Virus record (IMG/VR): IMGVR_UViG_2698536348_000007
Span: 1 to 17,256 of that record
Source: a virus
Taxonomy: Duplodnaviria; Heunggongvirae; Uroviricota; Caudoviricetes
Length of the DNA: 17,256 bases
Strand: one strand, 5' to 3'
Shown here: piece by piece, positions 1-16,363 of the stretch
Layout: every line of letters begins with the position of its first letter
How positions within the stretch are numbered: the first letter of the stretch is position 1
Notes under the pieces: generated by a model
Database searches by the model: none
Told to the model about the DNA's origin: nothing
The model's input: the letters and a program-made list of their open reading frames with translations, nothing else
Made by a program: the position numbers and the translations under genes

Positions 1-2
1 GG

Positions 3-629
3 GGAAAAACGAGTATTTTTAGTCATCCTGTTTACCTCTTTCTCAGGAAGTTTAGTCTCCAGGATTCCCGGGGCGGTTCAGGTCGTTTCATTGAGGAAAA
101 ACACTTCTTCAAACTTGAAGGTGAAACTTTACGTGAGTTCAAGCACAGAGTAGCTTTTAACTACTCTGTGAAAATTGCCCGTAACGTTCGCTCCCTCATC
201 CTCTGGACAGAACGAGGCGCAGCCCGTCACGCCAAAATGCTAGAAACCGATCAGGCGTGGGATGTGTTCGAAAAACTGGAAGACTGCTATTTCAGCCAGT
301 GCGAGAAAAATACTGGCAAACAAGAGAAGAAGCCCAACGGGCTTTCCGCAAAAGAAACAGACAGCCTTGTATGGCTGTGGGATTATGCCAACCGCTCACA
401 GGCATTGTTCCGTGAGTTGTATCCCGCATTAAAACTGATTCAGTCTGGCTATTCCGGCATATGCCACGACTACGGCTATGAGTTCTCGTATATCATCGGG
501 AGGGCGAGGGGCGTTTTAATTAATCACACGCGGGATATAGATATTTATGAGCCTGACGGGCCGACGAACCTTCTGGCATGGGAAAGGCTTAAGAACAAAG
601 AGTTGCCGCCTTCACTGCATCGCTACTGA
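3..629 (+). CDS. 5'-truncated phage early-region protein of unknown function (possibly antirepressor-like); start codon lies upstream of the window
   Basis: Reading frame is open from the window edge (no in-frame stop from position 3 to the TAC-TGA at 627-629). The first in-frame start codon in the window is GTG at 168 and has no Shine-Dalgarno, so the real start is probably upstream. A strong intrinsic terminator follows. Confidence 0.45.
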
Positions 630-646
630 CAATTGACAACTTAACA

Positions 647-670
647 AACCCAGCTTCGGCTGGGTTTTTT
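647..670 (+). terminator. Rho-independent terminator after the first ORF
   Basis: Hairpin aacccagc-ttcg-gctgggtt followed by a T-run (664-670), 18 nt after the stop codon. Confidence 0.6.
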
Positions 671-697
671 ATTGCTGAATTTTCAATATGAGAGGAC

Positions 698-1426
698 ATG
701 ACAATGAATGAGCTGATAAATAGCAGCATCATCAAAATGACCAGCATTGAAATCGCTGAGTTGGTGGGGAGTCGTCCAGATAACGTAAAAATATCAATAG
801 AGCGCCTGGCTGAATCTGGAGTTATTCAACTTCCTGCATTGCAGGTTTTCGAAAAAATCAATAACTTAGGACTGCGCCGTAGTGTCGAGGCTTACGTCTT
901 CGAAGGCGAACAAGGTAAGCGAGACAGCATTATTGTCGTCGCCCAATTGTCGCCGGAATTCACCGCTCGTCTTGTTGACCGTTGGCGAGAGCTTGAAGGG
1001 GCAACCGCGAAAATACCACAAACCTTTTCTGAGGCATTGCGCCTTGCGGCCGACCTTGAAGACCAGAAGGCTGAACTGGAGAAACAGCTTGCTCTCGCAG
1101 CACCTAAAGTTGAGTTTGCCGATCGAGTTGGCGAGGCCAGCGGAATTTTGATTGGAAACTTTGCAAAGGTTGTTGGTATTGGTCCAAACAAACTGTTTGC
1201 GTGGATGCGCGATCACAAAATCCTTATTGCTTCAGGTTCCCGGCGCAATGTGCCAATGCAGGAATATATGGATCGCGGCTATTTCACAGTGAAAGAAACA
1301 GCGGTCAATACAAATCACGGAATACAGATCTCGTTCACCACAAAAATCACCGGGCGTGGTCAACAGTGGCTGACCAGAAAGCCGCTCGATAACGGAATGC
1401 TGAAAGTAACAGGGGAGGCTGCTTAA
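698..1426 (+). CDS. roi: Roi-like phage DNA-binding/antirepressor protein with C-terminal KilAC (ANT) domain
   Basis: 242-aa ORF. The C-terminal segment FAKVVGIGPNKLFAWMRDHKIL...YMDRGYFTVKE...TTKITGRGQQWL matches the KilAC/ANT antirepressor domain as I recall it; position upstream of ybcO-rusA-Q fits Roi of HK022/H-19B-type phages. The ATG at 704 has better spacing to the AGAGGA Shine-Dalgarno than the ATG at 698, so the true start may be 704. Confidence 0.8.
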   Translation: MTMNELINSSIIKMTSIEIAELVGSRPDNVKISIERLAESGVIQLPALQVFEKINNLGLRRSVEAYVFEGEQGKRDSIIVVAQLSPEFTARLVDRWRELEGATAKIPQTFSEALRLAADLEDQKAELEKQLALAAPKVEFADRVGEASGILIGNFAKVVGIGPNKLFAWMRDHKILIASGSRRNVPMQEYMDRGYFTVKETAVNTNHGIQISFTTKITGRGQQWLTRKPLDNGMLKVTGEAA

Positions 1427-1716
1427 TGGCTAACCTACGCAAAGAAGCGCGCGGCAGAGAATGCCAGGTACGGATTTACGGCGTATGCAATGGCAATCCT
1501 GAAACGACAGTTCTGGCACATTACCGGATGGCTGGAATTTGCGGAACGGGAATGAAGCCTGACGACCTGATCGGTGCATGGGCTTGTAGTGACTGCCACG
1601 CGGAGATCGACCGACGCACCCGAATTCTCGACAACAACGACGCCAGACTTTACCACCTGGAAGGCGTGATCAGGACGCAGGCGATATTGCTGAAGGAGGG
1701 GAAGATTAAGTCATGA
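1426..1716 (+). CDS. ybcO: YbcO-like DUF1364 protein (putative nuclease) of the nin region
   Basis: 96-aa ORF, Cys/His-rich (CQVRIYGVCNG...CSDCHAEID), resembles DLP12 YbcO from memory. Start overlaps the roi stop (TAATG) and is preceded by AGGGGAGG. Confidence 0.75.
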   Translation: MANLRKEARGRECQVRIYGVCNGNPETTVLAHYRMAGICGTGMKPDDLIGAWACSDCHAEIDRRTRILDNNDARLYHLEGVIRTQAILLKEGKIKS

Positions 1717-2075
1717 ATGAATATGAGTTTGTGCTTCCCTGGCCGCCGACGGTGAATACCTACTGGCGAAGACGGGGAAGCCAGTACTACATCAGCGATA
1801 AAGGCCAGAAATACCGAAAAGACGTACAGCAAATCATCCGGCAACTCAGATTAGACATTTTCACTAAATCACGACTTCGCATCACAATTATTGCTGAACC
1901 ACCAGATTCCCGCCGTCGCGACCTCGATAACATCCTGAAAGGTTTACTCGACTCTCTTATCCACGCCGGATTTGCGGAAGACGACGAGCAATTCGATGAC
2001 ATTCGCGTAATTCGCGGCGTGAAAGTGCCTGGCGGTAGAGTGGGGATAAAAATCACCGAACTGGAGAACATTTGA
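1713..2075 (+). CDS. rusA: Holliday junction resolvase RusA
   Basis: 120-aa ORF with hallmark RusA motifs (LPWPPTVNTYW..., RRRDLDNILKGLLDSL). Strong Shine-Dalgarno GAAGGAGGGG upstream; start overlaps the ybcO stop (ATGA). Confidence 0.9.
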   Translation: MNEYEFVLPWPPTVNTYWRRRGSQYYISDKGQKYRKDVQQIIRQLRLDIFTKSRLRITIIAEPPDSRRRDLDNILKGLLDSLIHAGFAEDDEQFDDIRVIRGVKVPGGRVGIKITELENI

Positions 2076-2269
2076 TGAATGCTAAAATTCAAACGATACC
2101 TGAATTACTGATCTGCACCAGGGGAAATCAGACAGAAGTCGCCAGAATACTGAACTGCAATCGTGCTACAGTCAGAAAATACATTGATGATAAAGATGCG
2201 AAAAAGCACGCCGTCGTCAATGGCGTCCTTATGGTTCATCGCGGATGGGGTAAAGATACTGATGCGTGA
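2075..2269 (+). CDS. ninH: NinH-like small DNA-binding protein
   Basis: Strong resemblance to lambda NinH ([38 protein letters not shown]). The ORF track starts at TTG 2072; the ATG at 2075 overlaps the rusA stop (TGATG) and is the more likely start. Confidence 0.8.
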
Positions 2270-2696
2270 TATCCGGCAGGTTCTTGAGCGCTGGGGGGCA
2301 TGGGCGGTAAATAACTATGAGGATGTTACATGGTCGCCCATTGCTGCCGGATTTAAGGGACTGATCCCCGAAAAAGTAAAATCACGTCCACAGTGCTGTG
2401 ACGATGATGCGATGGTGATATGCGGGTGCATAGCCCGCCTTTACCGGAACAATCGCGATCTGCATGACTTGCTGGTTGATTACTACGTGTTGGGGGAGAC
2501 GTTCATGGCGCTGGCACGGAAACATGGGTGCTCTGACACCTGTATAGGTAAACGCCTTCACAAAGCGGAGGGGATTGTTGAAGGCATGCTGATGATGCTG
2601 GGAGTGAGGCTTGAGATGGATCGGTATGTTGAGCGTGAATTGCCGGGAGGGAGAAGCTCTGTATTTTATCAGCGAAAAAATAGTTTACGATCGTAA
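2262..2696 (+). CDS. Q: Late-gene antitermination protein Q (phage 21/82 QuuD-like family)
   Basis: From the ATG at 2262 the product ([25 protein letters not shown]...[16 protein letters not shown]...) matches Q/QuuD-type antiterminators from memory. The upstream extension of the track ORF (2163) overlaps ninH and is rejected. Position immediately before the late promoter/lysis region fits. Confidence 0.85.
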
Positions 2697-2720
2697 AAAT
2701 CTGCATATCATGATAAGAGT
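2684..2720 (+). promoter_or_regulatory. Candidate late promoter PR' / Q-utilisation region at the end of Q
   Basis: -35-like TTTACG (2684-2689), about 16-bp spacer, -10-like TATCAT (2706-2711), with a second -10-like GATAAG just downstream. In lambdoid phages PR' sits directly after Q. Hexamer matches are weak, so the exact placement is uncertain. Confidence 0.3.
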
Positions 2721-2741
2721 GGTTACATTGCCACGCAGCCG

Positions 2742-2766
2742 AACCCGCCGATGCGCGGGTTTTTTT
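2742..2766 (+). terminator. Intrinsic terminator 45-70 nt downstream of Q (candidate tR' or Q-gene terminator)
   Basis: GC stem cccgc/gcggg (2744-2748 / 2755-2759) followed by T7 (2760-2766). Confidence 0.5.
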
Positions 2767-2946
2767 GTACCCAGAATCCTGTGAGCTATACGGAAAGTAC
2801 ACAGAAAGGAAGGTACGACCGCAATTAATAACAAAATCTTAAAAATCTCATATGGCACTATTAGTTTTCTAAATATTGTATATTTTAAGTATTGCAGGAT
2901 AACCCTGTAACGAAGTTTGCGTAACAGCATTTTGCTCTACGAGTTT

Positions 2947-2976
2947 GCCAGCCTCCCCTGGTGGCTGGCTTTTTTT
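2947..2976 (+). terminator. Intrinsic terminator (alternative tR' candidate)
   Basis: 7-bp stem gccagcc/ggctggc (2947-2953 / 2963-2969), 9-nt loop, followed by T7 (2970-2976). Confidence 0.55.
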
Positions 2977-3094
2977 GTATCCGTTCAACGGGAATGTTAC
3001 ATACCTCACAATTAAGTCAGTTGAATGTTGTCTGCCCGGATGAGAATTTGTTAGAAAAAACTGCATGGTGAATCCCCCTGAGCGGAGGGGCGAC

Positions 3095-3120
3095 TGGTGA
3101 CGGTATAATCTCTGATTATC
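3095..3120 (+). promoter_or_regulatory. Promoter-like element: consensus -10 TATAAT (3104-3109) with a downstream -10-like repeat GATTAT (3114-3119)
   Basis: Perfect TATAAT hexamer in a non-coding interval; upstream A-tract (3054-3060); -35 is poor. A -10-like repeat just downstream is the architecture of sigma70 promoter-proximal pause sites used by Q antiterminators. Confidence 0.3.
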
Positions 3121-3208
3121 AAAACGAGAATGACGCGGGTTTAGTGGCACCGGGCTGAACTCACCGGGAGGCACCCGGCACCATGCAATGGCACATAGCG
3201 CCACTCTC

Positions 3209-3234
3209 CAGCCCCTCTCCGGAGGGGCTTTCTT
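3209..3234 (+). terminator. Intrinsic terminator-like hairpin closing a candidate ~115-nt small transcript
   Basis: Perfect 7-bp stem gcccctc/gaggggc (3211-3217 / 3222-3228) with tetraloop tccg, followed by tttctt. Confidence 0.45.
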
Positions 3235-3240
3235 ATGGAC

Positions 3241-3268
3241 AAAAAAGCCCGCGCTGGGAGACGCGGGC
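3241..3268 (-). terminator. Minus-strand intrinsic terminator convergent with the previous hairpin
   Basis: On the + strand: A6 (3241-3246) then 7-bp stem gcccgcg/cgcgggc (3247-3253 / 3262-3268). Read on the - strand this is a hairpin followed by U6. Confidence 0.4.
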
Positions 3269-3461
3269 GGCAAGGAATGAACAATGAAACGTGAAGTAAT
3301 ATTTCAGCTGGCGAATAATACCCCATAGTAATCACTCTGCGCAACTGCGCGACCTTTTTCGAATTGCGGGCTGTAGTCTCCCTTCTGCCATTGTCCTGTA
3401 ACTTCCGGACTTCAGCCCGCTCCTTATTTTACTCACAATATTATCCCGGCCGGGAGGATTC

Positions 3462-5372
3462 ATGGCATTTAAACACTATGATGTTGTCAGGGCGGCGTCG
3501 CCGTCAGACCTTGCGAAACGAATAACTCAAAAACTGAAGGAAGGGTGGCAGCCTTATGGTAGTGCGCTGATTTCGACAGCTGGTTATGGTGCGGAGTTCA
3601 TCCAGCCAGTTGTGAGTGAGGGGAGCATCTCATCACCAGAGGAGCCAGGCAACCGTCCGACGACCTCAGCGCCTTCTGTTGCGCCAGAATATTACTATGT
3701 GATCGCGCTTGCTGGTCAGTCCAATGGTATGTCATACGGTGAGGGACTGCCATTACCGGATACATTCGACAGCCCTGATCCACGTATTAAACAGTTAGCG
3801 CGTCGCAGTACGGTGACACCGGGCGGTGCAGCATGCAAATATAACGACATCATTCCGGCGGACCATTGTCTGCATGATGTGCAGGACATGAGCCGTCTTA
3901 ACCATCCGAAAGCGGACCTGTCAAAGGGGCAGTACGGAACCGTGGGGCAGGGGCTGCATATCGCCAAAAAACTGCTGCCGTTTATACCGGCGAATGCGGG
4001 CATTCTGCTGGTTCCGTGCTGTCGTGGTGGTTCAGCGTTCACCACCGGAGCTGATGGCACATACAGTGACGCGAGTGGCGCCTCGGAGAATTCAACCCGC
4101 TGGGGTGTGGACAAGCCGCTGTATAAGGACCTTATCGGTCGAACAAAAGCGGCACTGGAGAAGAACCCGAAAAATGTGCTGTTTGCCGTGGTGTGGATGC
4201 AGGGGGAATTTGATTTTGGCGGTACGCCGGCAAATCATGCCGCACAGTTTGGTGCGCTGGTTGATAAATTCCGTGCAGACCTGGCGGATATGGCAGGCCA
4301 GTGCGTCGGTGGCTCTGCTGGCGGTGTTCCCTGGATATGCGGGGACACGACGTATTTCTGGAAGCAGAAGAACGAATCCACGTACCAGACGGTGTACGGC
4401 AGCTATAAAAATAAAACGGAAAAGAATATCCATTTCGTACCGTTCATGACCGATGAGAACGGGGTGAATGTGCCGACGAACAAACCGGAAGAAGACCCGG
4501 ACATTCCGGGTATCGGTTATTACGGTTCGAAATGGCGTGACAGCTCAGCCACCTGGACGTCACAGGACAGGGCGAGCCATTTCAGTTCATGGGCTCGCCG
4601 TGGGATTATTTCCGACCGTCTGGCAACGGCGATTCTGAGCTGCGCGGGTAAGTCTTCTGCGTTTGTTAATGGTACTGCCGGGGTGGTTGTTCCAGACAGA
4701 CCGGTTACCACCTCAGAGTCTGTAATTTTTTACGATGCCAAAAAAGCTACAGACAATCAGCTGAAACCCTATGGCTGGGACGGTGTGTATGGCAGGCGCA
4801 CACTGGTTGATGACAGCGGCAATAAAGCTCTGCGAATTGAGAAAAATAACAGCGCGAAATCCTGGTCAATGTACTGTGATATTGCTGCAGACAAGGCAAA
4901 ACTTTTACTGGAAAAAGGCGGGGAAATTGCTGTCCGGTTTAAAATCCCCGAAAACGTCAATCTTGAGACAACCAGAAACAAGTATGCCTTTGGTTTGTAC
5001 TGGCGAATAGCGGAATGGCCGGGTGAGGGTGGTGAAGGCCATCTGAGTTCTTTCTTTGTCCAGACAGATAAAGCCAGTATTAATGTTGCATACCATCATA
5101 CAGTTAATCAACAAAAAGAACTTGGCACGTTTGGCGCATTCGACCATGACTGGCATACGCTTGCATTTAAATTTAAGGGCAGTAACAGCATTAATGTTAC
5201 TCCGGTGCTTGATGGTGTGGATGGACAGGCGTTTGACCTGGTGAAATGGGCCAATACTGCTAATGGACTCAACAGGTTTGTCATTACGGATATTACAGGT
5301 AGTGCAGAAACCTACCCTGTACTTATTGATACGGTGGAAGTTAAAGCAAACAAAGCTGGAGCAGCCGCATAA
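3462..5372 (+). CDS. nanS-p: NanS-p-type prophage sialate (9-O-acetyl-N-acetylneuraminate) esterase, YjhS-like; N-terminal DUF1737-like domain plus SASA/SGNH esterase domain
   Basis: 636-aa ORF with GGAGG Shine-Dalgarno 6 nt upstream. N-terminus MAFKHYDVVRAASPSDLAKRITQKLKEGWQPYG and the ALAGQSNGMSYGEG...VVWMQGEFD esterase core match the nanS-p/yjhS family found downstream of stx in Stx phages, from memory. Sits in the Q-to-holin moron locus. Confidence 0.85.
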   Translation: MAFKHYDVVRAASPSDLAKRITQKLKEGWQPYGSALISTAGYGAEFIQPVVSEGSISSPEEPGNRPTTSAPSVAPEYYYVIALAGQSNGMSYGEGLPLPDTFDSPDPRIKQLARRSTVTPGGAACKYNDIIPADHCLHDVQDMSRLNHPKADLSKGQYGTVGQGLHIAKKLLPFIPANAGILLVPCCRGGSAFTTGADGTYSDASGASENSTRWGVDKPLYKDLIGRTKAALEKNPKNVLFAVVWMQGEFDFGGTPANHAAQFGALVDKFRADLADMAGQCVGGSAGGVPWICGDTTYFWKQKNESTYQTVYGSYKNKTEKNIHFVPFMTDENGVNVPTNKPEEDPDIPGIGYYGSKWRDSSATWTSQDRASHFSSWARRGIISDRLATAILSCAGKSSAFVNGTAGVVVPDRPVTTSESVIFYDAKKATDNQLKPYGWDGVYGRRTLVDDSGNKALRIEKNNSAKSWSMYCDIAADKAKLLLEKGGEIAVRFKIPENVNLETTRNKYAFGLYWRIAEWPGEGGEGHLSSFFVQTDKASINVAYHHTVNQQKELGTFGAFDHDWHTLAFKFKGSNSINVTPVLDGVDGQAFDLVKWANTANGLNRFVITDITGSAETYPVLIDTVEVKANKAGAAA

Positions 5373-5377
5373 TTGCT

Positions 5378-5414
5378 AAAAAAAGCCGCCAGCGGCAGGA
5401 ATGGAAGCTGGCGG
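5378..5414 (-). terminator. Minus-strand intrinsic terminator directly after the nanS-p stop
   Basis: + strand: A7 (5378-5384) then 8-bp stem ccgccagc/gctggcgg (5386-5393 / 5407-5414) with a 13-nt loop. No T-run follows on the + strand, so it works as a terminator only for leftward transcription (it may still stabilise the 3' end of nanS-p mRNA). Confidence 0.4.
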
Positions 5415-5511
5415 AGGTAATCCCAATGGAGAATGTAAAGAAAAGATGCTTTCGTACATTGGTTTTTTAAATGAAAACAATTCTCATTGTCAACCATAAC
5501 GGTAAGAAATT

Positions 5512-5694
5512 ATGACATTTATTCATCAGGTGATGCTGTACTTCTGTACGGCGGTCTGTGTGCTGTATCTTCTTTCGGGTGGGTACAGGGCTGTGCGCGA
5601 TTTCTGGTGCAGGCAGATTGATAAAAGGGCCGCTGAGAAAATCAGCGCCAGTCAGTCAGCCGGAAGCAAACCCGAAGAACCCGTTACTCCTTAA
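5512..5694 (+). CDS. Hypothetical small membrane protein (60 aa; one predicted transmembrane helix followed by a charged tail)
   Basis: ORF MTFIHQVMLYFCTAVCVLYLLSGG... Weak Shine-Dalgarno. A 14-codon upstream ORF (5471-5515, MKTILIVNHNGKKL) ends with a TGA overlapping this ATG (ATGA). A promoter-like TTGTCA (5487-5492) lies just upstream. Coding status is uncertain. Confidence 0.3.
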   Translation: MTFIHQVMLYFCTAVCVLYLLSGGYRAVRDFWCRQIDKRAAEKISASQSAGSKPEEPVTP

Positions 5695-5719
5695 CAACCC
5701 CTTTCAGCGAGAAAATCCC

Positions 5720-5965
5720 ATGTCAGAAATCACATCCCTGGTCACTGCAGAGGCAGTGAAGGAAGTCCTGCGCTCTGAAGAAGTCCGGAGCGCACTGAAA
5801 CAGAAACTTCGCCAGAATCTTGAGTCGCGTCTTGATGCAGAAGTGGATGCCATTCTGGATGAGCTGCTGGGCGTAGCAGCGGTTCCTGAGCCGGAAGGTA
5901 TCGCGGGTGACGGGAGTGCTTCAGATGGCGGTGAACCTACACCTGACAGCGACATGATGATGTAA
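5720..5965 (+). CDS. Hypothetical acidic protein (82 aa) upstream of the holin
   Basis: [54 protein letters not shown]... has protein-like helical composition and an acidic C-terminus. Weak GAGA Shine-Dalgarno. The antisense ORF 5704-5955 is low-complexity and rejected. Confidence 0.4.
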
Positions 5966-6041
5966 GCATGCGCAAGGGACCATCGGTGTGTGCCGGTGGT
6001 CTTTATATTGTTGTGAGCTTCCGGATTGCGGGAGACGGGGT

Positions 6042-6257
6042 ATGTACCAGATGGAAAAAATCACAACAGGTGTGTCATACACCACGTCAGCGGTGGGAAC
6101 GGGCTACTGGTTCCTGCAGTTGCTGGACAGGGTTTCCCCGTCTCAGTGGGCGGCAATAGGCGTGCTGGGGAGTCTGCTGTTTGGGCTGCTGACGTACCTG
6201 ACTAACCTGTATTTCAAAATCAAAGAGGACCGGCGTAAGGCGGCGCGGGGAGAGTAA
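6042..6257 (+). CDS. S: Class II holin/antiholin, S21-type (pinholin-like) with dual start motif
   Basis: From the ATG at 6042 the product [71 protein letters not shown] closely resembles phage 21 S (from memory). Two in-frame starts (M1 and M4 at 6051) are typical of holin/antiholin pairs. GGGAGACGGGG Shine-Dalgarno upstream. The longer track ORF from 5988 is rejected. Confidence 0.85.
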
Positions 6258-6261
6258 GCTG

Positions 6262-6795
6262 ATGAGCAGGAAATTCCGCTATGGTTTATCAGCGGTCGTT
6301 CTGGCGCTGATTGCTGCGGGCGCTTCTGCGCCTGAAATCCTCGACCAGTTTCTTGACGAAAAAGAAGGTAACCACACCACGGCATACCGTGATGGTGCGG
6401 GTATCTGGACTATCTGCCGCGGTGCCATCCTGGTGGATGGCAAACCTGTCGTTCCGGGCATGAAGTTGTCGAAGGAAAAATGCGACCGGGTTAACGCCAT
6501 TGAGCGTGATAAGGCGCTGGCATGGGTGGAGAAAAACATCAGAGTGCCACTGACCGAACCGCAGAAAGCGGGCATCGCGTCATTCTGTCCGTACAACATC
6601 GGGCCTTCGAAATGCTTCACCTCAACGTTTTACCGGAAACTGAACGCAGGAGACCGGAAAGGTGCATGTGCTGAAATCCGCCGATGGATATATGACGGCG
6701 GCAGGGACTGTCGGAACCGCTCAAATAACTGTTACGGGCAGGTATCGCGGCGTGACCAGGAGAGCGCGCTGGCGTGCTGGAGTATCGACAGATAA
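6262..6795 (+). CDS. R: SAR endolysin (R21-type, T4-lysozyme-like muramidase, GH24)
   Basis: 177-aa ORF with a Gly/Ala-rich N-terminal signal-anchor-release segment (YGLSAVVLALIAAGASAPE) and catalytic signature EGNHTTAYRDGAGIWTICRG (E...D...T). Immediately follows the holin; GGGGAGAG Shine-Dalgarno. Confidence 0.9.
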   Translation: MSRKFRYGLSAVVLALIAAGASAPEILDQFLDEKEGNHTTAYRDGAGIWTICRGAILVDGKPVVPGMKLSKEKCDRVNAIERDKALAWVEKNIRVPLTEPQKAGIASFCPYNIGPSKCFTSTFYRKLNAGDRKGACAEIRRWIYDGGRDCRNRSNNCYGQVSRRDQESALACWSIDR

Positions 6796-6879
6796 GCAGA
6801 ATATTCTGCTGAAAAATGCCGTTGACCAACGCGAACGGATAACACGAAATCCTGCGAACTGGCAAAATTTAAGTGAGTA

Positions 6880-6926
6880 AAAGTAAAAACCCCGTTTGTT
6901 GGCAGCAAGCGGGGTTTTGTGTTTCT
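6880..6926. terminator. Bidirectional intrinsic terminator between endolysin and Rz
   Basis: 9-bp stem ccccgtttg/caagcgggg (6890-6898 / 6906-6914, one G-U pair) with 7-nt loop, flanked by an A-rich tract upstream (6880-6889) and a T-rich tract downstream (6915-6926). Confidence 0.5.
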
Positions 6927-7015
6927 GACCTTGAATAAGGCAAGGGAGAAATTATGGGTAGGGAGGTTCTTTCCCTGTGAGGAAGTATAAAAGATTCTTT
7001 CTGAGGTTGTCCATT

Positions 7016-7129
7016 ATGAAAGGCATTGAGGTGGAGACGCCAGCAAGTCTGGATTTAACAAGAGCGGCAGCTTTTGCCATTCGTATTGTGGCAATTGCTG
7101 TTCTGGTCTGGGCAATCCGTTGGTGGTGA
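7016..7129 (+). CDS. Hypothetical 37-aa C-terminally membrane-anchored peptide, translationally coupled to Rz
   Basis: ORF MKGIEVETPASLDLTRAAAFAIRIVAIAVLVWAIRWW, not in the supplied track (below 60 aa). GAGG 8 nt upstream of the ATG. Its TGA (7127-7129) is 1 nt before the Rz ATG (7131). Coding status unproven. Confidence 0.3.
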   Translation: MKGIEVETPASLDLTRAAAFAIRIVAIAVLVWAIRWW

Positions 7130-7130
7130 T

Positions 7131-7589
7131 ATGAATCGTGTGCTGTATGGCGTGCTTATTGTCCTGCTGCTTGGTTGTGGATCGCTGTGGCTGGCAACAG
7201 ACCATTACCGTGATAACGCCATCACCTACAAAGAGCAGCGAGATGATGCGAAGACAAAACTCAGCCAGGCGAACGCCACCATTGCTGACATACAGCAGCG
7301 CCAGCGTGATGTTGCTGCACTCGATGCCAGATACACCAGGGAGCTTGCTGATGCTAACGCGACTATTGAAAGTCTCCGTGCTGATGTTTCTGCTGGGCGT
7401 AAGCGCCTGCAAGTCGCCGCCACCTGTGCAAAGTCAACGACCGGAGCCAGCGGCATGGGCGATGGAGAAAGCTCAGGACTTACAGCAGATGCTGAACTCA
7501 ATTATTACCGTCTCCGAAGTGGAATCGACAAGATAACCGCGCAGGTTAACTACCTGCAGGAGTACATCAGGATGCAATGCCTCGATTAA
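7131..7589 (+). CDS. Rz: Rz i-spanin (inner-membrane spanin subunit)
   Basis: From the ATG at 7131: MNRVLYGVLIVLLLGCGSLWLATDHYRDNAITYKEQRDDAK...RDVAALDARYTRELADA closely parallels lambda Rz (N-terminal TM helix, then HYRDNAITYK). The track ORF start at 7074 is an upstream extension without support. Confidence 0.85.
   Translation: MNRVLYGVLIVLLLGCGSLWLATDHYRDNAITYKEQRDDAKTKLSQANATIADIQQRQRDVAALDARYTRELADANATIESLRADVSAGRKRLQVAATCAKSTTGASGMGDGESSGLTADAELNYYRLRSGIDKITAQVNYLQEYIRMQCLD
7351..7536 (+). CDS. Rz1: Rz1 o-spanin lipoprotein, embedded in the +1 frame of Rz
   Basis: ATG at 7351 with GGGAG 8 nt upstream. Product MLTRLLKVSVLMFLLGVSACKSPPPVQSQRPEPAAWAMEKAQ... has a lipoprotein signal peptide, lipobox-like VSAC and the proline-rich mature region typical of Rz1. 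Entirely inside Rz, as in lambda. Confidence 0.7.
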   Translation: MLTRLLKVSVLMFLLGVSACKSPPPVQSQRPEPAAWAMEKAQDLQQMLNSIITVSEVESTR

Positions 7590-7593
7590 CAGA

Positions 7594-7618
7594 GCCAGCT
7601 CAATCGCTGGCCTTTTTT
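7594..7618 (+). terminator. Intrinsic terminator after Rz/Rz1
   Basis: Stem gccagc/gctggc (7594-7599 / 7606-7611) with 6-nt loop, followed by T6 (7613-7618). Confidence 0.6.
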
Positions 7619-7669
7619 ATGAGGAGAGATATAACCTGAATCAATGCCAGTGCATTATCAACAAATGGA

Positions 7670-8251
7670 TCACTGGGTAAGCTCGTTTGGTTTTAAATGT
7701 CCGTCGAGAATCAGATTGTGATTTTCCCGATGCAGAACCAGTGTGCCCATATAATCAGGTTTAAATCTCCATCCATTCATTTTTTTTGCAATTCTGGACA
7801 GACAGTGATTATGTGTGAAAATCACAGTAACATGATCTGATTTTGATATTTTAAGGATATTATTTACTGCGTTATCATCACATGTCGATATGTCCGGAAT
7901 AGTTGCTGTCTTACCTCCCGAAAAAAAAGTGGCTGTCTGCATTGTTCGGAGTGTGTCTGTAGAATAGAGACTGTAGTATGGAAACATTCTTCTGAATTTA
8001 TCTCCATATTGTTGAGCTTTGTTAGCTCCGTTTACTGTGATTCCCTCATGTGCTGAAAGACATATTCTTTGGGAGCGATCGCATCTTTCCCCATGCCGGA
8101 TGAGAAAAATAATGGGATGTTTCTGGTTAATCTCAGTGACATCGTTCACATCAAGTCTGACTGGAGTTCTTACAATGTATATGATGGATACAGAAACGAT
8201 TATGACAAGTAAAAATATAAGAAGAGATTTTGTTAGCGTTTGATTTAACAT
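7670..8251 (-). CDS. Ais/PmrG-family lipopolysaccharide core heptose(II)-phosphate phosphatase homologue (histidine-phosphatase superfamily) with N-terminal signal/anchor; prophage cargo gene
   Basis: Minus-strand ORF. Motifs IRHGERCDRS (RHG catalytic motif), GITV.G, LYSTDTLRT.QTA, IFTHNHCL and FKPDY align with E. coli Ais as I recall it. Hydrophobic N-terminus LLIFLLVIIVSVSIIYIV. The start at 8251 (MLNQTL..., AAGGGA Shine-Dalgarno 7 nt upstream) is preferred over the track start at 8284. Opposite orientation to the flanking phage genes, in the position lambda uses for bor. Confidence 0.75.
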   Translation of the reverse strand: MLNQTLTKSLLIFLLVIIVSVSIIYIVRTPVRLDVNDVTEINQKHPIIFLIRHGERCDRSQRICLSAHEGITVNGANKAQQYGDKFRRMFPYYSLYSTDTLRTMQTATFFSGGKTATIPDISTCDDNAVNNILKISKSDHVTVIFTHNHCLSRIAKKMNGWRFKPDYMGTLVLHRENHNLILDGHLKPNELTQ

Positions 8252-8305
8252 ATAAATTCCCTTGTCTGTGTTGAAAATGGGCATTATTATGCGTAAATCT
8301 TATGT

Positions 8306-8319
8306 AATCCTTAAGGATT
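8306..8319. promoter_or_regulatory. Perfect 14-bp palindrome AATCCTTAAGGATT in the promoter region of the Ais-like gene
   Basis: Exactly self-complementary, 22-35 bp upstream of the first in-frame ATG (8284) of the minus-strand gene, next to a CATAAT -10-like hexamer. Contains CTTAAG half-sites reminiscent of PmrA/BasR boxes (CTTAAT-like), which regulate chromosomal ais. Confidence 0.3.
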
Positions 8320-8853
8320 GTCTGACGTGGTGATATGACGCGAAATACAGTGGGTACACAGAATGCTGTGAACAACGACGAAATGGGCATTGGTAGCGGT
8401 ACTGGTGCTTTTTTTATTGGTTGGTTGCTCAAGTCTTGATAAAGCGCGTTAGCTTTTTGGTATTGCCTCTTAGGTCTGTAAAATTGCCGACGGTGTCCGG
8501 CAGTGCATGCAGGGCTGATCGTCTATGAGAACAGAATATATTGCTAAAAATGAAGTGTGCGTCAATGCTTATAAAGCATGCAATTCTGTATTTCTAACTA
8601 TTCAATAAAATAAATTCTTTCTGTCGCAGTGAATATACAAATGTTGATCAGCGCTCGATGTGGCGACGGGTTTCTATATCAGGAGACTTTGGCATTTATC
8701 CGCGAGGCAGCCTATCTGGTGCTGTAGTGGAATGAAGCGGATATAACCTAAATAAGGTTAAACATTAATCAGACATGGCTCTGCTGTGTGAAATCTGAAA
8801 ATTTACAGCAGTCATTGTGCATCAGTTTTTAACAGAGAACGTCAGAAGGTGAC

Positions 8854-9669
8854 ATGGCAAAGCTGGACTGGAAAAAGCTGGAGCAGGCATTTCGACGCGA
8901 ACATGTCAAAACCGGCATAAAGCTTCAGGACTGGTGCCGTCAGAACAATATCAGTTATGACACGGCTCGGCGGTACATTAAACTGCGCAAACACTCCCCC
9001 AGAAATACAGAGAAAAGTGCGCAGAAAAATGCGCAAATTGATGATCAAAAAAGTGCGCAGAAATCTGACGGCAACTCCAGTCATGACGAGCCTTCAGGCG
9101 ATGATGGTTGTGATGAAAAATGCGCAAATTTGGCAGAAACGAAACGGACTCGTGGTTCCAGACTTTTGCCACCTTCAAATGCTTTTTCTCAGCGTAACAC
9201 CCACGCCGTCAGACACCGTGGATACGCGAAGTATCTCGAGGCAGATAACCTCATAGATGATGCAGTCGGAATGGAACTTGCCGATGAACTGGTGTTTACC
9301 CGGGCCCGCGCACTTTCAGTAACAGGAACACTGAAAAAAATGTTCGCCGACCTGAAAGAGGCGGCTGACGTGGAAACCCGCGTTGCTCTGTACGACAAAA
9401 TACTCAAAGCTGAACAGGCTCTTGACCGGAATATTGCCCGTATCGAGTCAATTGAACGCTCATTGCTGACGCTGGACGTTCTGGCTGAAACAGCACCAAA
9501 ACTTCGTGCTGACCGGGAAAGAACCAACGCTGCCAGAGATAAACTCAGAGCGGAAACCGATATTCTGACCAGCCAGCGTCGGGGCGTTGTTACGCCTGTC
9601 AGTGACATCGTGTCATCGCTGCATGAAATGAGTAATTCGGGGAGACTGGATGACATTCCGGAAGAATGA
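8854..9669 (+). CDS. Terminase small subunit (putative)
   Basis: 271-aa ORF immediately upstream of, and overlapping, the large terminase. N-terminal HTH-like segment (KLQDWCRQNNISYDTARRYIK) and coiled-coil C-terminus are typical of small terminases. Assigned mainly by synteny. Confidence 0.65.
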   Translation: MAKLDWKKLEQAFRREHVKTGIKLQDWCRQNNISYDTARRYIKLRKHSPRNTEKSAQKNAQIDDQKSAQKSDGNSSHDEPSGDDGCDEKCANLAETKRTRGSRLLPPSNAFSQRNTHAVRHRGYAKYLEADNLIDDAVGMELADELVFTRARALSVTGTLKKMFADLKEAADVETRVALYDKILKAEQALDRNIARIESIERSLLTLDVLAETAPKLRADRERTNAARDKLRAETDILTSQRRGVVTPVSDIVSSLHEMSNSGRLDDIPEE

Positions 9670-11356
9670 ACCGCGATGTGATGAACCGTCAGAAATGACA
9701 GAGGCCGAACAACGTCTGTTCATCATGACTAAACTGAGCAATCCCTGGTGGCGGCTCAATCATCTCTACAAGATACAGAACGAAAAAGGTGAGCTGGTCA
9801 CCTTCAGAATGCGACCGGCGCAGCGCCAGTTGTTCCGGAGCATGCACAATAAAAATATTATCCTGAAAGCACGCCAGCTGGGGTTTTCCACGGCCATTGA
9901 TATTTATCTTCTCGACCAGGCATTATTCATACCGCATCTCAAATGCGGGATTGTCGCTCAGGATAAACAGGCTGCCAGTGAAATTTTCCGCACCAAAATT
10001 GCTGTACCGTTCGATCATCTTCCTGACTGGCTGAGAGCCTCATTCACCATCGTTGAACGTCGTAGCGGAGCCAGCGGTGGCTATATCCTGTTTGGGCACG
10101 GCTCGAGTATCCAGGTGGCAACCTCATTCCGTTCAGGTACGGTGCAGCGCCTGCATATCTCAGAGCACGGCAAAATTTGCGCAAAATATCCGGCTAAGGC
10201 GAAAGAGCTGCGAACCGGTACACTTAATGCCGTCTCTGATGAGTGCATTATTTTTGATGAATCCACTGCTGAAGGTGTGGGTGGTGATTTTTACGAGATG
10301 AGTAACCGGGCACAGGAAATCACTGCATCAGGGCTGGCGCTGACGCCACAGGATTATAAATTCCATTTTTACGCCTGGTGGCAGGATCTCAAATACAGCG
10401 CCAGAGTGCCGGAAAGCGGACTTAAGCTGTCACGGGAAAAAACAGCGTATTTTTCTGCGGTTGAAAAAGCAATGAACATCACGCTTACCGATGAGCAGAA
10501 ACACTGGTACATCTGCAAGGAAACTGAACAGCGTGAGGAAATGAAGCAGGAGTTTCCCTCAACACCACAGGAGGCGTTTCTGACGTCCGGACGACGGGTG
10601 TTCAGTGCGGAAAGCACGCTGCAGGCAGAGTCATTCTGTTCGCCACCGCTGATTGTTTATGACATTGAACCGGTTACAGGAACGAAGACCAAAGCGCAGT
10701 CTCTGCGTGACGGGAATAAAGCCGAACAGCACCGGACGCTGATGAATTATCTGCTGGTCTGGGAGCTACCGGATCCGGATGAAGAGTATGTATGCGGAGC
10801 GGATACCGCTGAGGGGCTGGAGCACGGAGACCGCTCATCGCTGGATATCATCAGATGTAGTAATGGTGAGCAGGTAGCCCACTGGTTTGGTCATCTCGAT
10901 GCGGAGCTTTTCGCTCATCTCATTGCGCAGGTCTGCCGTATGTACAACAACGCGTTTGTGGGGCCGGAGCGTAACAATCACGGACATGCCGTTATCCTGA
11001 AACTCCGGGAACTCTATCCGACGCGTTATATCTACAACGAACAGCACCTTGACCAGGCATATGACGACGATACGCCCCGTCTTGGCTGGCTGACAACCCG
11101 CCAGAGTAAACCGGTCCTGACTGAGGGAATGAAAACGCTGCTGAATAACGGCCTGTCGGGGATCCGCTGGACGGGCACATTATCAGAAATGAACACCTAC
11201 GTTTATGACGCGAAAGGCTCCATGAATGCACAGGAAGGCTGTTTTGATGATCAGCTTATGAGCTACATGATTGCCCAGGAGATGCGCGCCAGAATGCCGG
11301 TGAGGGTAAGACAGAAAACGGATAAACGCAGAACCACACACTGGATGGCTCACTGA
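9650..11356 (+). CDS. Terminase large subunit
   Basis: 568-aa ORF with GGGGAG Shine-Dalgarno 5 nt upstream of the ATG at 9650, overlapping the end of the small-subunit gene. Followed directly by the portal (stop/start overlap TGATG). Alternative starts at 9695 and 9725 cannot be excluded. Confidence 0.8.
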   Translation: MTFRKNEPRCDEPSEMTEAEQRLFIMTKLSNPWWRLNHLYKIQNEKGELVTFRMRPAQRQLFRSMHNKNIILKARQLGFSTAIDIYLLDQALFIPHLKCGIVAQDKQAASEIFRTKIAVPFDHLPDWLRASFTIVERRSGASGGYILFGHGSSIQVATSFRSGTVQRLHISEHGKICAKYPAKAKELRTGTLNAVSDECIIFDESTAEGVGGDFYEMSNRAQEITASGLALTPQDYKFHFYAWWQDLKYSARVPESGLKLSREKTAYFSAVEKAMNITLTDEQKHWYICKETEQREEMKQEFPSTPQEAFLTSGRRVFSAESTLQAESFCSPPLIVYDIEPVTGTKTKAQSLRDGNKAEQHRTLMNYLLVWELPDPDEEYVCGADTAEGLEHGDRSSLDIIRCSNGEQVAHWFGHLDAELFAHLIAQVCRMYNNAFVGPERNNHGHAVILKLRELYPTRYIYNEQHLDQAYDDDTPRLGWLTTRQSKPVLTEGMKTLLNNGLSGIRWTGTLSEMNTYVYDAKGSMNAQEGCFDDQLMSYMIAQEMRARMPVRVRQKTDKRRTTHWMAH

Positions 11357-13500
11357 TGAAAAATGAAACTAATACCATGGCGACGAAAAACGACAACGGA
11401 GCCACGCCGCGTTTTTCTCAGCGCCAGTTACAGGCGCTTTGTTCTGATATTGACAGTCAGCCTAAATGGCGCGATGCCGCAAACAAGGCCTGTGCGTATT
11501 ACGATGGTGACCAGTTGCCACCAGAAGTTCTTCAGGTACTGAAAGATCGCGGTCAGCCGATGACCATCCATAACCTCATCGCGCCTACCGTTGATGGTGT
11601 TCTGGGTATGGAGGCCAAAACGCGGACTGATCTGGTGGTGATGTCAGACGAGCCAGATGATGAAACTGAAAAACTGGCTGAAGCTATTAATGCTGAATTT
11701 GCCGATGCATGCCGCCTTGGCAATATGAATAAAGCCCGCTCTGATGCCTATGCGGAACAAATCAAGGCGGGGCTCAGCTGGGTGGAGGTCAGACGGAACA
11801 GCGATCCGTTCGGGCCTGAGTTTAAGGTGTCTACTGTCAGCCGGAATGAAGTGTTCTGGGACTGGCTCAGCCGGGAAGCTGATTTAAGTGACTGCCGCTG
11901 GCTGATGCGCCGCCGCTGGATGGATACCGATGAGGCAAAAGCCACATTCCCGGGAATGGCTCAGGTTATCGATTATGCCATTGATGACTGGCGTGGTTTT
12001 GTCGATACCACGGTTACTGAAGGCCAGCCCAGTCCGTTGATGAGTGCATGGGAAGAGTATCAGTCATGGGATCGTAAGGAGAACGAATGGCTTCAGCGTG
12101 AACGCCGTCGTGTGCTGCTTCAGGTGGTTTATTACCGTACATTCGAGCGTCTTCCGGTGATTGAACTCAGTAATGGACGGGTGGTGGCCTTTGATAAAAA
12201 TAATCTGATGCATGCGGTGGCTGTGGCATCCGGGCGGGTGCAGGTGAGAGTCGGGCGGGTAAGTCGTATTCGTGAAGCCTGGTTTGTGGGACCGCACTTT
12301 ATTGTGGATCGCCCCTGCAGTGCGCCGCAGGGGATGTTCCCGCTGGTTCCCTTCTGGGGATACCGGAAGGATAAAACCGGGGAGCCTTACGGGCTGATTT
12401 CCCGGGCCATTCCGGCACAGGATGAGGTGAATTTTCGTCGTATAAAACTGACGTGGTTGCTTCAGGCCAAACGCGTGATTATGGACGAGGATGCCACCCA
12501 GTTGTCAGACAACGAGCTGATGGAGCAGATCGAGCGTCCGGATGGCATTATTAAACTGAATCCGGCCCGAAAAAATCAGAAAAGCGTTGCTGATGTTTTC
12601 CGGGTTGAACAGGATTTTCAGGTTGCCAGCCAGCAGTTTCAGGTCATGCAGGAGTCGGAAAAACTTATCCAGGACACGATGGGGGTTTATTCCGCATTTC
12701 TCGGGCAGGATTCAAATGCATCGTCCGGCGTGGCGATCAGCAACCTGGTGGAGCAGGGAGCCACAACCCTTGCCGAAATCAACGATAACTACCAGTTTGC
12801 CTGCCAGCAGGTGGGAAGGCTGTTGCTCGCTTATCTTCTCGATGGCCTGAAAAAGCGGCGTAATCATGCGGTGGTGATTAATCGTGATGATCGCCAGCGT
12901 CGCCAGACCATTGTTCTCAATGCTGAAGGTGATAATGGTGAACTGACCAATGATATTTCAAGGTTAAATACACATATTGCGCTGGCTCCTGTTCAGCAGA
13001 CACCGGCGTTTAAGGCACAGCTTGCACAGCGAATGTCAGAGGTTATTCAGGGGCTGCCACCTCAGGTGCAGGCCGTCGTGCTCGACCTGTGGGTTAACCT
13101 TCTGGATGTGCCGCAGAAACAGGAATTTGTCGAACGTATTCGTGCGGCGCTGGGGACACCAAAATCACCGGATGAGATGACCCCGGAAGAGCAGCAGGCC
13201 GCTCAGCAGCAACAGGCCCAGGAGCAGCAACAACAGGAACTGCAGATGCGCGAAATGGCAGGCCGGGTGGCTAAACTGGAAGCAGAAGCTGCCAGGGCAC
13301 AGGCAGCTGCGCAACGGGATAATGCTGGCGCACAACGGGATGTCGCCGCGGCACAGGGACAGCGTTATGTGGATGCGCTCAACCAGGCGCATACGGCAGA
13401 AATCATTACCGGCATACAGAATATGGAACAGGAGCAGGAAGCTCTTCAGCAACAGATGCTACATACACTACAACAGCGGATGCATGAATTGCCGCTATGA
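11356..13500 (+). CDS. Portal protein (P22-like, with C-terminal Gln/Ala-rich helical extension)
   Basis: 714-aa ORF following terminase. Size and C-terminal coiled-coil (EEQQAAQQQQAQEQQQQELQMREMAGRVAKLEAEAARAQAAAQ) resemble the P22 gp1 portal barrel; synteny terminase-portal-scaffold-coat. Confidence 0.8.
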   Translation: MKNETNTMATKNDNGATPRFSQRQLQALCSDIDSQPKWRDAANKACAYYDGDQLPPEVLQVLKDRGQPMTIHNLIAPTVDGVLGMEAKTRTDLVVMSDEPDDETEKLAEAINAEFADACRLGNMNKARSDAYAEQIKAGLSWVEVRRNSDPFGPEFKVSTVSRNEVFWDWLSREADLSDCRWLMRRRWMDTDEAKATFPGMAQVIDYAIDDWRGFVDTTVTEGQPSPLMSAWEEYQSWDRKENEWLQRERRRVLLQVVYYRTFERLPVIELSNGRVVAFDKNNLMHAVAVASGRVQVRVGRVSRIREAWFVGPHFIVDRPCSAPQGMFPLVPFWGYRKDKTGEPYGLISRAIPAQDEVNFRRIKLTWLLQAKRVIMDEDATQLSDNELMEQIERPDGIIKLNPARKNQKSVADVFRVEQDFQVASQQFQVMQESEKLIQDTMGVYSAFLGQDSNASSGVAISNLVEQGATTLAEINDNYQFACQQVGRLLLAYLLDGLKKRRNHAVVINRDDRQRRQTIVLNAEGDNGELTNDISRLNTHIALAPVQQTPAFKAQLAQRMSEVIQGLPPQVQAVVLDLWVNLLDVPQKQEFVERIRAALGTPKSPDEMTPEEQQAAQQQQAQEQQQQELQMREMAGRVAKLEAEAARAQAAAQRDNAGAQRDVAAAQGQRYVDALNQAHTAEIITGIQNMEQEQEALQQQMLHTLQQRMHELPL

Positions 13501-13520
13501 ATATCCTGAACTTAACGGAA

Positions 13521-13544
13521 CCCCGTCATCGTACGGGGTTTTTT
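13521..13544 (+). terminator. Intrinsic terminator/attenuator between portal and scaffold genes
   Basis: 6-bp stem ccccgt/acgggg (13521-13526 / 13533-13538) with 6-nt loop, then T6 (13539-13544), 21 nt after the portal stop. Confidence 0.5.
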
Positions 13545-13657
13545 GTCTCCGGAGATAAGCGTTCCGGGAGCGGTGCGCTTATTCGCGGGGGCAGCGATAA
13601 GCCTTATTTACTCAACCATTCGGATCTGTCCGATAAACAGACCATGCGGAGTTATTT

Positions 13658-14665: not shown

Positions 14666-14688
14666 CTTACTGAAGGAGAACTGAAGTA

Positions 14689-15903: not shown

Positions 15904-15919
15904 TTTTTCCTTTCCTCAT

Positions 15920-15942
15920 GCCGGGTTATCGCCCGGCTTTTT
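15920..15942 (+). terminator. Intrinsic terminator after the major capsid gene
   Basis: Stem gccggg/cccggc (15920-15925 / 15932-15937) followed by T5 (15938-15942). Confidence 0.6.
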
Positions 15943-15957
15943 CAGGAGTCATTAATT

Positions 15958-16350: not shown

Positions 16351-16363
16351 TATAAACCTTCCG

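Follow-up and report, generated by a model that had tools for sequence, protein, structure and literature searches.

A probable esterase-linked module with the small genes DUF1378 and DUF826 in the late region of a 933W-like prophage

The antiholins S21-71 and S107 and the T4 proteins RI and RIII are small proteins which are encoded in or at the lysis cassette and set the time of lysis. In T4, a membrane-associated component (RI, membrane/periplasmic) is combined with a small cytoplasmic one, RIII (82 aa). The releasin gp25 of phage Mu (DUF2730) is a 99-aa protein in N-out/C-in orientation; only four of its residues lie in the periplasm, and its cytoplasmic domain is anionic. Releasin genes are found in phages with signal-arrest-release (SAR) endolysins; gp25 also promotes the release of SAR endolysins of other phages, which do not depend on it. 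At the RNA level, EcOnc33 was described as an abundant, Hfq-crosslinked minus-strand small RNA (sRNA) of approximately 71 nt (Tree et al. 2014), and the sRNAs PasA and PasC are known from enteropathogenic Escherichia coli (EPEC). Here we describe a locus which resembles parts of these systems. It contains two small open reading frames (ORFs) of the families DUF1378 and DUF826 between a nanS-p-type esterase gene and the holin gene S, and it is located in a 17,256-nt stretch of viral DNA (IMG/VR record IMGVR_UViG_2698536348_000007, positions 1 to 17,256; hereafter the window), which represents the late region of a lambdoid prophage that is 933W-like but stx-negative. ORFs of DUF1378 and DUF826 between nanS-p and S were noted in PMC10462455, and nothing more was reported on them. 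Our literature search found no other paper naming both families, and searches with locus tags and for NanS-p export yielded nothing usable.

Both ORFs are almost certainly real genes of these two families. The first one scores 122 bits against the Pfam profile DUF1378 (residues 1-58 on profile positions 1-58 of 59) and the second one 149.4 bits against DUF826 (residues 1-75 on positions 1-75 of 75), the gathering cut-off being 25 bits in each case. They also match PHROG 494 (E = 5e-38) and PHROG 311 (E = 6e-37), respectively, which are both labelled 'unknown function', and no function is assigned to either family by Pfam, RefSeq or PHROGs. The two ORFs are already known and annotated. The 673-bp interval is 100% identical to prophages of E. 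coli FORC_069, NCCP15648 and ML35, and in the FORC_069 prophage RefSeq lists both genes (WP_000142783.1 for DUF1378 and WP_001290235.1 for DUF826). It is 99.4% identical to O104:H4 outbreak strains and approximately 88% identical to its counterpart in about 300 genomes of Stx1, Stx2 (Stx, Shiga toxin) and related phages. An earlier note on this DNA, which was made from the letters alone, had stated that neither product has a recognisable function. This is correct in that the databases offer none, but it overlooked that the families are catalogued and routinely annotated. The coordinates of the 60-aa ORF, of the 14-codon 'leader' ORF in front of it, of their ATGA overlap and of the 25-nt gap before the second ORF are all as given there. 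The second product is indeed acidic and helical, but it has 81 and not 82 aa, the stop codon having been counted.

For comparison, related loci were fetched (L-numbered below). Intact frames starting with ATG were found in 84 of 84 DUF1378 and in 80 of 82 DUF826 genes. The ratio of nonsynonymous to synonymous substitutions (dN/dS; pairwise Nei-Gojobori) is 0.14-0.16 for DUF1378 and only 0.06 for its residues 27-50, which correspond to the cytoplasmic helix. For DUF826 it is 0.20 in residues 1-51 and 0.44 in the tail. Two other sense frames and two antisense frames gave values of 1.8-4.0. The fifth, the mirror antisense frame, appears constrained, as expected, but fails at larger divergence, where its BLOSUM62 sums are 12-60 versus 103-110 in the sense frame and stops are gained. 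Judged by these ratios, both genes are under frame-specific purifying selection. Together with the profile matches and the intact frames, this bears out the proposal of the earlier note that two genuine small genes, one for a membrane protein and one for an acidic helical protein, form a pair.

Overlapping or longer frames in this region were considered and rejected. An antisense ORF of 83 aa opposite DUF826 (5704-5955, minus strand) is judged to be a side effect of the codon usage of the sense gene, since the mirror antisense frame loses similarity and gains stops with distance. Over DUF826 codons 1-51 the mirror frame is open in 29 of 30 alleles. A GTG-started ORF of 135 aa (5558-5965) was dismissed because the constraint resides in the DUF1378 frame which it overlaps, and because the ATG at 5720 has its own Shine-Dalgarno sequence, which is strong in the Mu-like allele described below. 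Apparent natural fusions of DUF1378 with DUF826 or of DUF826 with the holin (phrog_8301, P0185, P0211) are frameshifted, chimeric or over-extended calls, and the long forms P0121, P0123 and P0144 are likewise artefacts and no true fusions.

The DUF1378/DUF826 pair is very probably part of a mobile module linked to the esterase gene, and the two genes are not simply genes of the lysis cassette. In 95 of 95 assessable loci with the pair, the esterase gene is located immediately upstream of it. The order esterase, DUF1378, DUF826 persists in the most divergent alleles of either protein. A pinholin gene follows immediately downstream in 89 of the 95 loci. The six exceptions are Mu-like prophages (L098-L101, L112 and L113), including O157:H7, with the order tail fibre, tail-fibre assembly, Gin-type recombinase, esterase, DUF1378, DUF826, com and mom. 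This Mu-like version is present in 210 of 5426 complete E. coli genomes. Its esterase is devoid of the N-terminal DUF1737 domain, and its products are 58% (esterase), 60% (DUF1378) and 45% (DUF826) identical to those of the window, which are similar degrees of divergence. The non-coding elements of the Mu-like copy are retained as well: on the minus strand, a terminator hairpin borders on the esterase stop and a promoter-like site precedes DUF1378, and an analogous hairpin follows DUF826. Since all these elements are retained there without lysis genes nearby, the unit of inheritance appears to comprise the esterase gene, a convergent RNA gene, DUF1378, DUF826 and the terminator, and not the lysis cassette. 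It is found at two kinds of sites: in lambdoid prophages, those with stx included, it belongs to the Q-dependent late operon and lies just before the genes for the pinholin and the SAR endolysin, and in Mu-like prophages it lies at the right end.

The distribution of the two families is narrow. A search with the DUF826 profile in 1.84 billion representative proteins gave 51 hits. These revealed no domain fusion that would be informative; a single long protein among them, a repeat protein, is matched over a short stretch only. In a tblastn search, DUF826 matched only 306 lambdoid/Stx records among 50,697 phage genomes, and it was absent from a scan with one genome per species of 185,579 species (GTDB representatives). 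In the scan of GTDB species representatives, DUF1378 was found in two genes only, from Cedecea and Lonsdalea; its range is wider, with members in Cedecea neteri, Lonsdalea britannica and phage BUCT708. A genome typically has more than one intact copy of the pair (median, 3 places).

The constant neighbourhood of the esterase raises the question whether the pair serves NanS-p, by its membrane placement, its release or a pathway related to sialic acid, with the adjacency to lysis genes being incidental. Besides the presence of the esterase gene in front of every pair assessed, the divergence of lambdoid from Mu-like prophages is in step for all three genes, which have still remained adjacent in the latter, away from lysis genes. 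Further, the esterase N-termini differ between the two groups and neither resembles a signal sequence, so that export would need lysis or a helper. We nevertheless consider a partnership with NanS-p unlikely, since DUF1378 homologues at three loci and DUF826 homologues at five loci have no esterase next to them, and prophages of E. coli E2348/69 keep intact esterase genes without the pair. The linkage itself may just reflect en-bloc transfer as a moron.

The second conserved feature of the module lies on the minus strand between the esterase gene and DUF1378. A promoter-like site, a predicted RNA of approximately 78 nt and a terminator hairpin are arranged there (window 5378-5493) in convergent orientation to nanS-p and divergent from DUF1378. 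The promoter TTGAC(A/T/C/G)-17-(T/G)TA(A/G)AA was recognised in 11 of 13 diverged alleles, including the Mu-like L098 and Sp6 of O157:H7 Sakai. The full layout, with the promoter followed after 80-108 nt by a hairpin and a T-run, is present in 10 of the 13, where the sequence of the RNA body is not conserved and the terminator hairpin is retained with different, compensating sequences. A simple promoter scanner missed the minus-strand site, the -10 region of which matches at three to four of six positions; the site was read from the sequence. In Sakai Sp6, which shares the promoter TTGACA-17-TTAAAA, the northern probe used to detect EcOnc33 falls exactly into the interval from the esterase stop to the start codon of DUF1378, and in E2348/69 the gap is occupied on the minus strand by the experimentally defined sRNAs PasA and PasC. 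The minus-strand element in the window is thus a candidate sRNA gene and the putative positional counterpart of EcOnc33 and PasA/PasC. It is not PasA or PasC itself, as blastn revealed only chance-level matches of 9-13 nt and none past the T-run. Identity with Esr41 (RF02676), to which the element has its sole Rfam match, was also rejected (20.7 bits versus a gathering score of 102 bits, E = 0.23); Esr41 proper maps to SpLE1.

This minus-strand promoter offers an explanation for the leader ORF, which the earlier note had regarded as coupled to DUF1378. Codons 1-6 of the leader coincide with the 17-nt spacer of the promoter, codons 3-6 are variable, with replacements including L5 to P, F or Y, and the conserved bases are those of the -35 and -10 regions. 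Since the conserved bases are the promoter and the variable codons its spacer, the leader ORF is most likely incidental, a plus-strand reading of the sRNA promoter. Alternatively, it could be a genuine coupling device, which brings ribosomes to the weak start of DUF1378. The ATGA overlap would fit to this, and so would the weak Shine-Dalgarno sequence of DUF1378 (GGTAAGA, -3.0 kcal/mol, compared with -3.6 to -10.7 in most leaderless alleles) in exactly the clade which bears the leader, and the open frame in approximately 30 of 35 upstream haplotypes. However, the leader has no Shine-Dalgarno sequence of its own, it tolerates the radical changes at L5, and it is broken in four haplotypes (frameshifted in L024, without ATG in L033, absent in L034 and L060) in which DUF1378 is intact throughout. 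Moreover, the leader is confined to one clade and absent from all others, including the Mu-like one; the correlation with the weak Shine-Dalgarno sequence represents one evolutionary event and is weak evidence. The overlap follows nearly automatically from the conserved Thr (ACN) at position 2 of DUF1378. We therefore regard coupling as rather unlikely and prefer the view of the leader as a by-product. Folding of the region upstream of DUF1378 revealed no unusually stable structure besides the terminator hairpin (z = -1.3). In the protein P0009 of one E. coli genome, the leader and DUF1378 form one continuous frame (MKTVLIVNHNGKKLMQFIHQ...); this could mean that the junction tolerates mutation, or it could be a sequencing artefact.

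The same arrangement can be read as a toxin-antitoxin-like system, in which DUF1378 would be a membrane toxin checked by DUF826 or, in the manner of hok/mok/sok, by the minus-strand sRNA acting on the leader. An ORF overlapping the start of a 60-aa protein with a single transmembrane (TM) segment, a divergent sRNA promoter inside this ORF, a real sRNA at this position in a sister allele (EcOnc33), the restriction of the leader to alleles with a weak DUF1378 Shine-Dalgarno sequence, and an acidic partner with a disordered tail are all compatible with it. On balance we find it very improbable. The missing leader in every other clade, its lack of a ribosome binding signal and the single event behind the correlation argue here as well; in addition, E2348/69 has no DUF1378 beside its sRNAs at this position, which act on many targets in trans, and in the loci L087 and L088 neither DUF826 nor the sRNA layout accompanies DUF1378. 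The predicted RNA would be complementary to 5378-5458, a segment that ends 12 nt before the leader ATG. Neither protein matched a PADLOC or NCBIfam model or a Pfam family other than DUF1378 and DUF826, and thus no Hok, other toxin, antitoxin or defence domain is recognisable. With zero matches to PADLOC or toxin families, the toxin/antitoxin or anti-defence role suggested in the earlier note finds no support.

The gene order in the window is Q, STnc100, nanS-p, the DUF1378/DUF826 pair, S, R, Rz, terminase and an N4-gp56-type capsid gene, and 669 bp separate the esterase stop (5372) from the holin ATG (6042). RefSeq names the esterase 'SASA family carbohydrate esterase'. The features of the locus are listed in Table 1.

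Table 1. Features between the esterase gene and the endolysin gene, in window coordinates
Feature	Position	Strand	Basis and remarks
nanS-p-type sialate O-acetylesterase, 636 aa	3462..5372	+	Pfam DUF1737 + SASA + DUF6645; first gene of the module
Candidate convergent small-RNA gene	5378..5458	-	terminator hairpin arms 5386-5393 / 5407-5414; T7 at 5384 to 5378; inferred 5' end near 5458
Promoter-like site of the minus-strand RNA	5465..5493	-	-35 TTGACA, 5493 to 5488; 17-nt spacer, 5487 to 5471; -10 TTAAAA, 5470 to 5465
14-codon 'leader' ORF (MKTILIVNHNGKKL, then stop)	5471..5515	+	translation; TGA overlaps the ATG at 5512 (ATGA)
DUF1378 protein, 60 aa (MTFIHQVMLYFCTAVCVLYLLSGGYRAVRDFWCRQIDKRAAEKISASQSAGSKPEEPVTP)	5512..5694	+	Pfam PF07125, E 1.1e-35
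DUF826 protein, 81 aa + stop (82 codons)	5720..5965	+	Pfam PF05696, E 3.1e-44
Intrinsic terminator in the DUF826-holin interval	5975..6013	+	hairpin and T-rich tail, kept in 22 haplotypes
Small hairpin over the holin Shine-Dalgarno sequence	6018..6034	+	folds of 22 haplotypes
P21-type class II holin (pinholin), possible dual start MYQ-M	6042..6257	+	Pfam Phage_holin_2_1
SAR endolysin, N-terminus MSRKFRYGLSAVVLALIAAGASA	6262..6795	+	Pfam Phage_lysozyme

With respect to transcription, no sigma-70-like promoter was detected on the plus strand in 5373-5512, and the hairpin after the esterase stop has a T-run on the minus strand only. According to PMC10462455, nanS-p mRNA increases 10- to 250-fold upon addition of mitomycin C. 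For these three reasons, the pair is most simply thought to be transcribed as part of the Q-antiterminated late transcript shared with nanS-p and the lysis genes. The stem of the intrinsic terminator downstream of DUF826 shows compensatory changes among the 22 haplotypes, for example GGGACCATCGG/CCGGTGGTC, GGGCCATCAG/CTGCTGGCC and GGGGGTGTCGG/CTGATGCCCC, and a polymerase that is not modified would stop there, ahead of the holin gene. The small hairpin next to it probably belongs to the control of the holin start site and not to the pair; this role is presumed by analogy with the structure upstream of lambda S. An extra positive charge defines the antiholin S21-71 (PMC9636201). The window pinholin has a possible dual start, M-Y-Q-M (6042-6053); the extension MYQ of its long form carries no extra positive charge, and this leaves room for a lysis regulator that is encoded separately. 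The SAR endolysin of the window has three basic N-terminal residues. Related holins in L102 and E2348/69 have the 68-aa form only.

Other parts of the window also contain elements of interest. A full-length match to Rfam STnc100 (165 bits) lies downstream of Q at 3035-3240 on the plus strand; the STnc100 family was related to PasD by Zhu et al. 2026. It is directly followed by a terminator-like hairpin on the minus strand (3247-3268), which echoes the 'convergent sRNAs at the pR' moron site' of Tree et al. 2014. Between Rz and the terminase genes there is an ORF of 204 aa on the minus strand (7670-8284). In an identical RefSeq prophage an overlapping gene (window 7670-8251) is annotated as a lipopolysaccharide (LPS) core heptose(II)-phosphate phosphatase (Ais-like), and this ORF is a probable moron that affects LPS.

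The properties of the two proteins were deduced from sequence and AlphaFold2 models. DUF1378 is modelled as a single continuous helix of residues 3-49. Its most hydrophobic stretch of 19 residues is 3-21 (mean Kyte-Doolittle value 1.9), and the TM segment, approximately residues 3-25, is followed by a basic helix (26-49) with R26, R29, R34, K38, R39 and K43 and by a short disordered tail; the cytoplasmic part has a net charge of +2. Because of the basic stretch after the TM segment and the positive-inside rule, the N-terminus, with about three residues, is placed in the periplasm and the remainder in the cytoplasm. DUF1378 is thus predicted to be a single-pass protein of the inner membrane with N-out/C-in topology. 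The cytoplasmic helix has the motif R/K-x-x-R-x-[FY]-x-x-[RK]-[QK]-I-D-x-x-A-A-E-K. Positions including L9, F11, G23-G24-Y25, D37, A41 and K43 are invariant among homologues from Escherichia, Cedecea, Lonsdalea and a phage, and this invariance across genera points to a specific interface that goes beyond a mere charged tail.

DUF826, in turn, is predicted to be cytoplasmic. It has a pI of 4.1 and a net charge of -11, and its model consists of helices 10-17 and 20-49 (pLDDT, the confidence score of the model, above 90) and a disordered tail. The longer helix is amphipathic and acidic and belongs to the conserved N-terminal domain (residues 1-51). The tail is variable, acidic and Pro-rich and ends with MMM in the window; length variants, all in frame, have 81, 89, 90, 94 or 96 aa, and their C-terminus is always MMM, MML or TML. 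A sequence search in the PDB revealed no relatives of either protein with a solved structure, and Foldseek found no match for the two models, both of which are plain helices. Neither protein resembles a known lysis regulator in sequence or fold.

Outside the esterase module both families favour slots that flank lysis cassettes. In a Lonsdalea prophage DUF1378 is the last coding gene of a cassette with a lambda-S-type holin, a soluble lysozyme and Rz/Rz1, where the Rz stop and the DUF1378 start share 4 nt. Phage BUCT708 has it at the end of a cassette of a P21-type pinholin, a SAR endolysin and an Rz-like gene, again with a 4-nt overlap with the stop of the latter. The overlaps indicate translational coupling of distant DUF1378 genes to Rz, a gene of late lysis. 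A distant DUF826 stands by itself in at least two genomes (L107 and L109), with Rz/Rz1 directly before it and a methyltransferase cluster and the terminase gene after it; in L108 no lysis gene precedes it, and another distant DUF826 adjoins a KilA-N/ORF11CD3 gene. In the L. britannica locus (L087, 3209-3361), DUF1378 is followed by an unrelated acidic helical ORF of 50 aa and then by a terminator, which mirrors the layout in the window.

Based on these observations we tentatively propose, by analogy with known systems, that the pair could be a late-expressed and non-essential modulator of the membrane steps of lysis, with DUF1378 holding DUF826 at the membrane; we see this as a working model that has somewhat less than even chances. 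The late Q-antiterminated transcript would supply both proteins alongside NanS-p and the lysis proteins. DUF1378 would anchor DUF826 at the cytoplasmic face of the inner membrane, its basic helix pairing with the acidic helix of DUF826, and the two could act as a two-piece analogue of the anionic, membrane-tethered Mu releasin or of a cytoplasmic antiholin. The link to lysis is suggested by the pinholin gene directly downstream in most lambdoid loci, by the DUF1378 homologues that overlap Rz, and by the DUF826 homologue after Rz/Rz1. The more specific version, a split releasin/antiholin in which a tether and a detachable acidic effector would time lysis by pinholin and SAR endolysin, and with it the release of Shiga toxin and NanS-p in Stx and related prophages, and the convergent, Hfq-dependent sRNA would tune their synthesis in cis, is improbable in our view, and the argument for an antiholin role is adjacency of genes, i.e. 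genomic context only.

Several observations weigh against a lysis accessory. In Mu-like prophages the trio is located between gin and com/mom, with no lysis gene nearby. Two prophages of E2348/69 hold the esterase gene without the pair, and since one of them (PP2) also has a pinholin and a SAR endolysin, lysis can do without the pair. Between DUF826 and S there is a conserved intrinsic terminator, and in Cedecea the neighbours of DUF1378 are genes for a tail fibre and a Dam-type methylase. The presence of the pair did not correlate, in a small sample, with the N-terminal charge of the SAR endolysin or with the start form of the holin. Finally, slots on either side of lysis cassettes are classic moron sites. 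The lysis-timing modulator suggested in the earlier note retains some support through the distant homologues at the 3' end of lysis cassettes and the coupling of DUF1378 to Rz there, but it is weakened because the pair is always accompanied by the esterase and also resides in Mu-like prophages without a nearby holin; the term accessory module, which the note offered as well, is at least as apt, given the esterase linkage and the Mu-like occurrence.

Several of these points would also suit a moron that is expressed in the lysogen and changes the host envelope or excludes superinfecting phages. Exclusion factors are typically small proteins of the inner membrane, conserved terminators lie on both sides of the unit, it occupies known moron slots (between Q and S, between Rz and terminase, at the right end of Mu, after tail fibres), and it is maintained intact at several places of a genome. 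However, expression in the lysogen is at variance with the lack of a detectable plus-strand promoter before DUF1378 and with the coupling of distant DUF1378 genes to Rz, a late gene, and PADLOC gave no match. We therefore think that such a moron is quite unlikely, and continue with the modulator of lysis as the preferred, albeit tentative, reading.

The pair deserves attention because it is present in approximately a fifth of the complete E. coli genomes, often in several copies, and in essentially all sequenced Stx phages, where it is placed directly between the genes for lysis and those for the toxin or esterase cargo. Should the pair act on the timing of lysis, it would affect the amounts of Shiga toxin and phage released by a lysogen, and also the release of NanS-p; if it serves the esterase, it would bear on the use of host sialic acids by pathogens. 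The two ORFs as such were annotated before. Added here are the esterase-linked module, its occurrence in Mu-like prophages and the convergent sRNA gene, the promoter of which explains the leader; what is new is that the unit of inheritance seems to be the esterase gene, the sRNA gene, DUF1378 and DUF826, and not the lysis cassette.

Among the known systems, PasA/PasC of EPEC and EcOnc33 are those to compare with the candidate sRNA gene. Like these, it is located directly 3' of the esterase stop, in the same orientation, has a similar length (approximately 70-90 nt) and ends with a terminator hairpin and a T-run, but the sequence of its RNA body is unrelated. The likeness to hok/mok/sok consists in a small single-TM protein whose start is overlapped by a leader ORF and in an sRNA gene of opposite orientation on its 5' side. 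It differs in that the leader is not family-wide, that no match to Hok_Gef or another toxin exists, and that the RNA in the window points away from the gene and would have only the untranslated region upstream of it to pair with.

With the antiholins the pair shares small size and a location at the lysis cassette, and with T4 RI/RIII the division into a component at the membrane and a small one in the cytoplasm. It is not similar to them in sequence, however, and in the phage genomes searched DUF826 is limited to the lambdoid/Stx group; the soluble part of DUF1378 is predicted to be cytoplasmic and not periplasmic, and the holin of the window has a possible second start of its own, without the extra charge. 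The likeness to Mu gp25 is that of a small N-out/C-in tether (the topology of DUF1378 being predicted) with almost no periplasmic part and an anionic domain at the cytoplasmic face, in a phage which, like those served by gp25, has a SAR endolysin. Here, too, the differences count against the proposed role: hhalign gave a probability of 0.2% for both proteins, i.e. no homology, anchor and acidic part are two polypeptides, the cytoplasmic helix of DUF1378 itself is basic, and the pair does not follow the charge of the endolysin N-terminus. A releasin gene would be expected within about five genes downstream of the endolysin gene, whereas the pair in the window precedes the holin gene; the DUF1378 homologues of L087 and L088 do fit the position of the Mu releasin.

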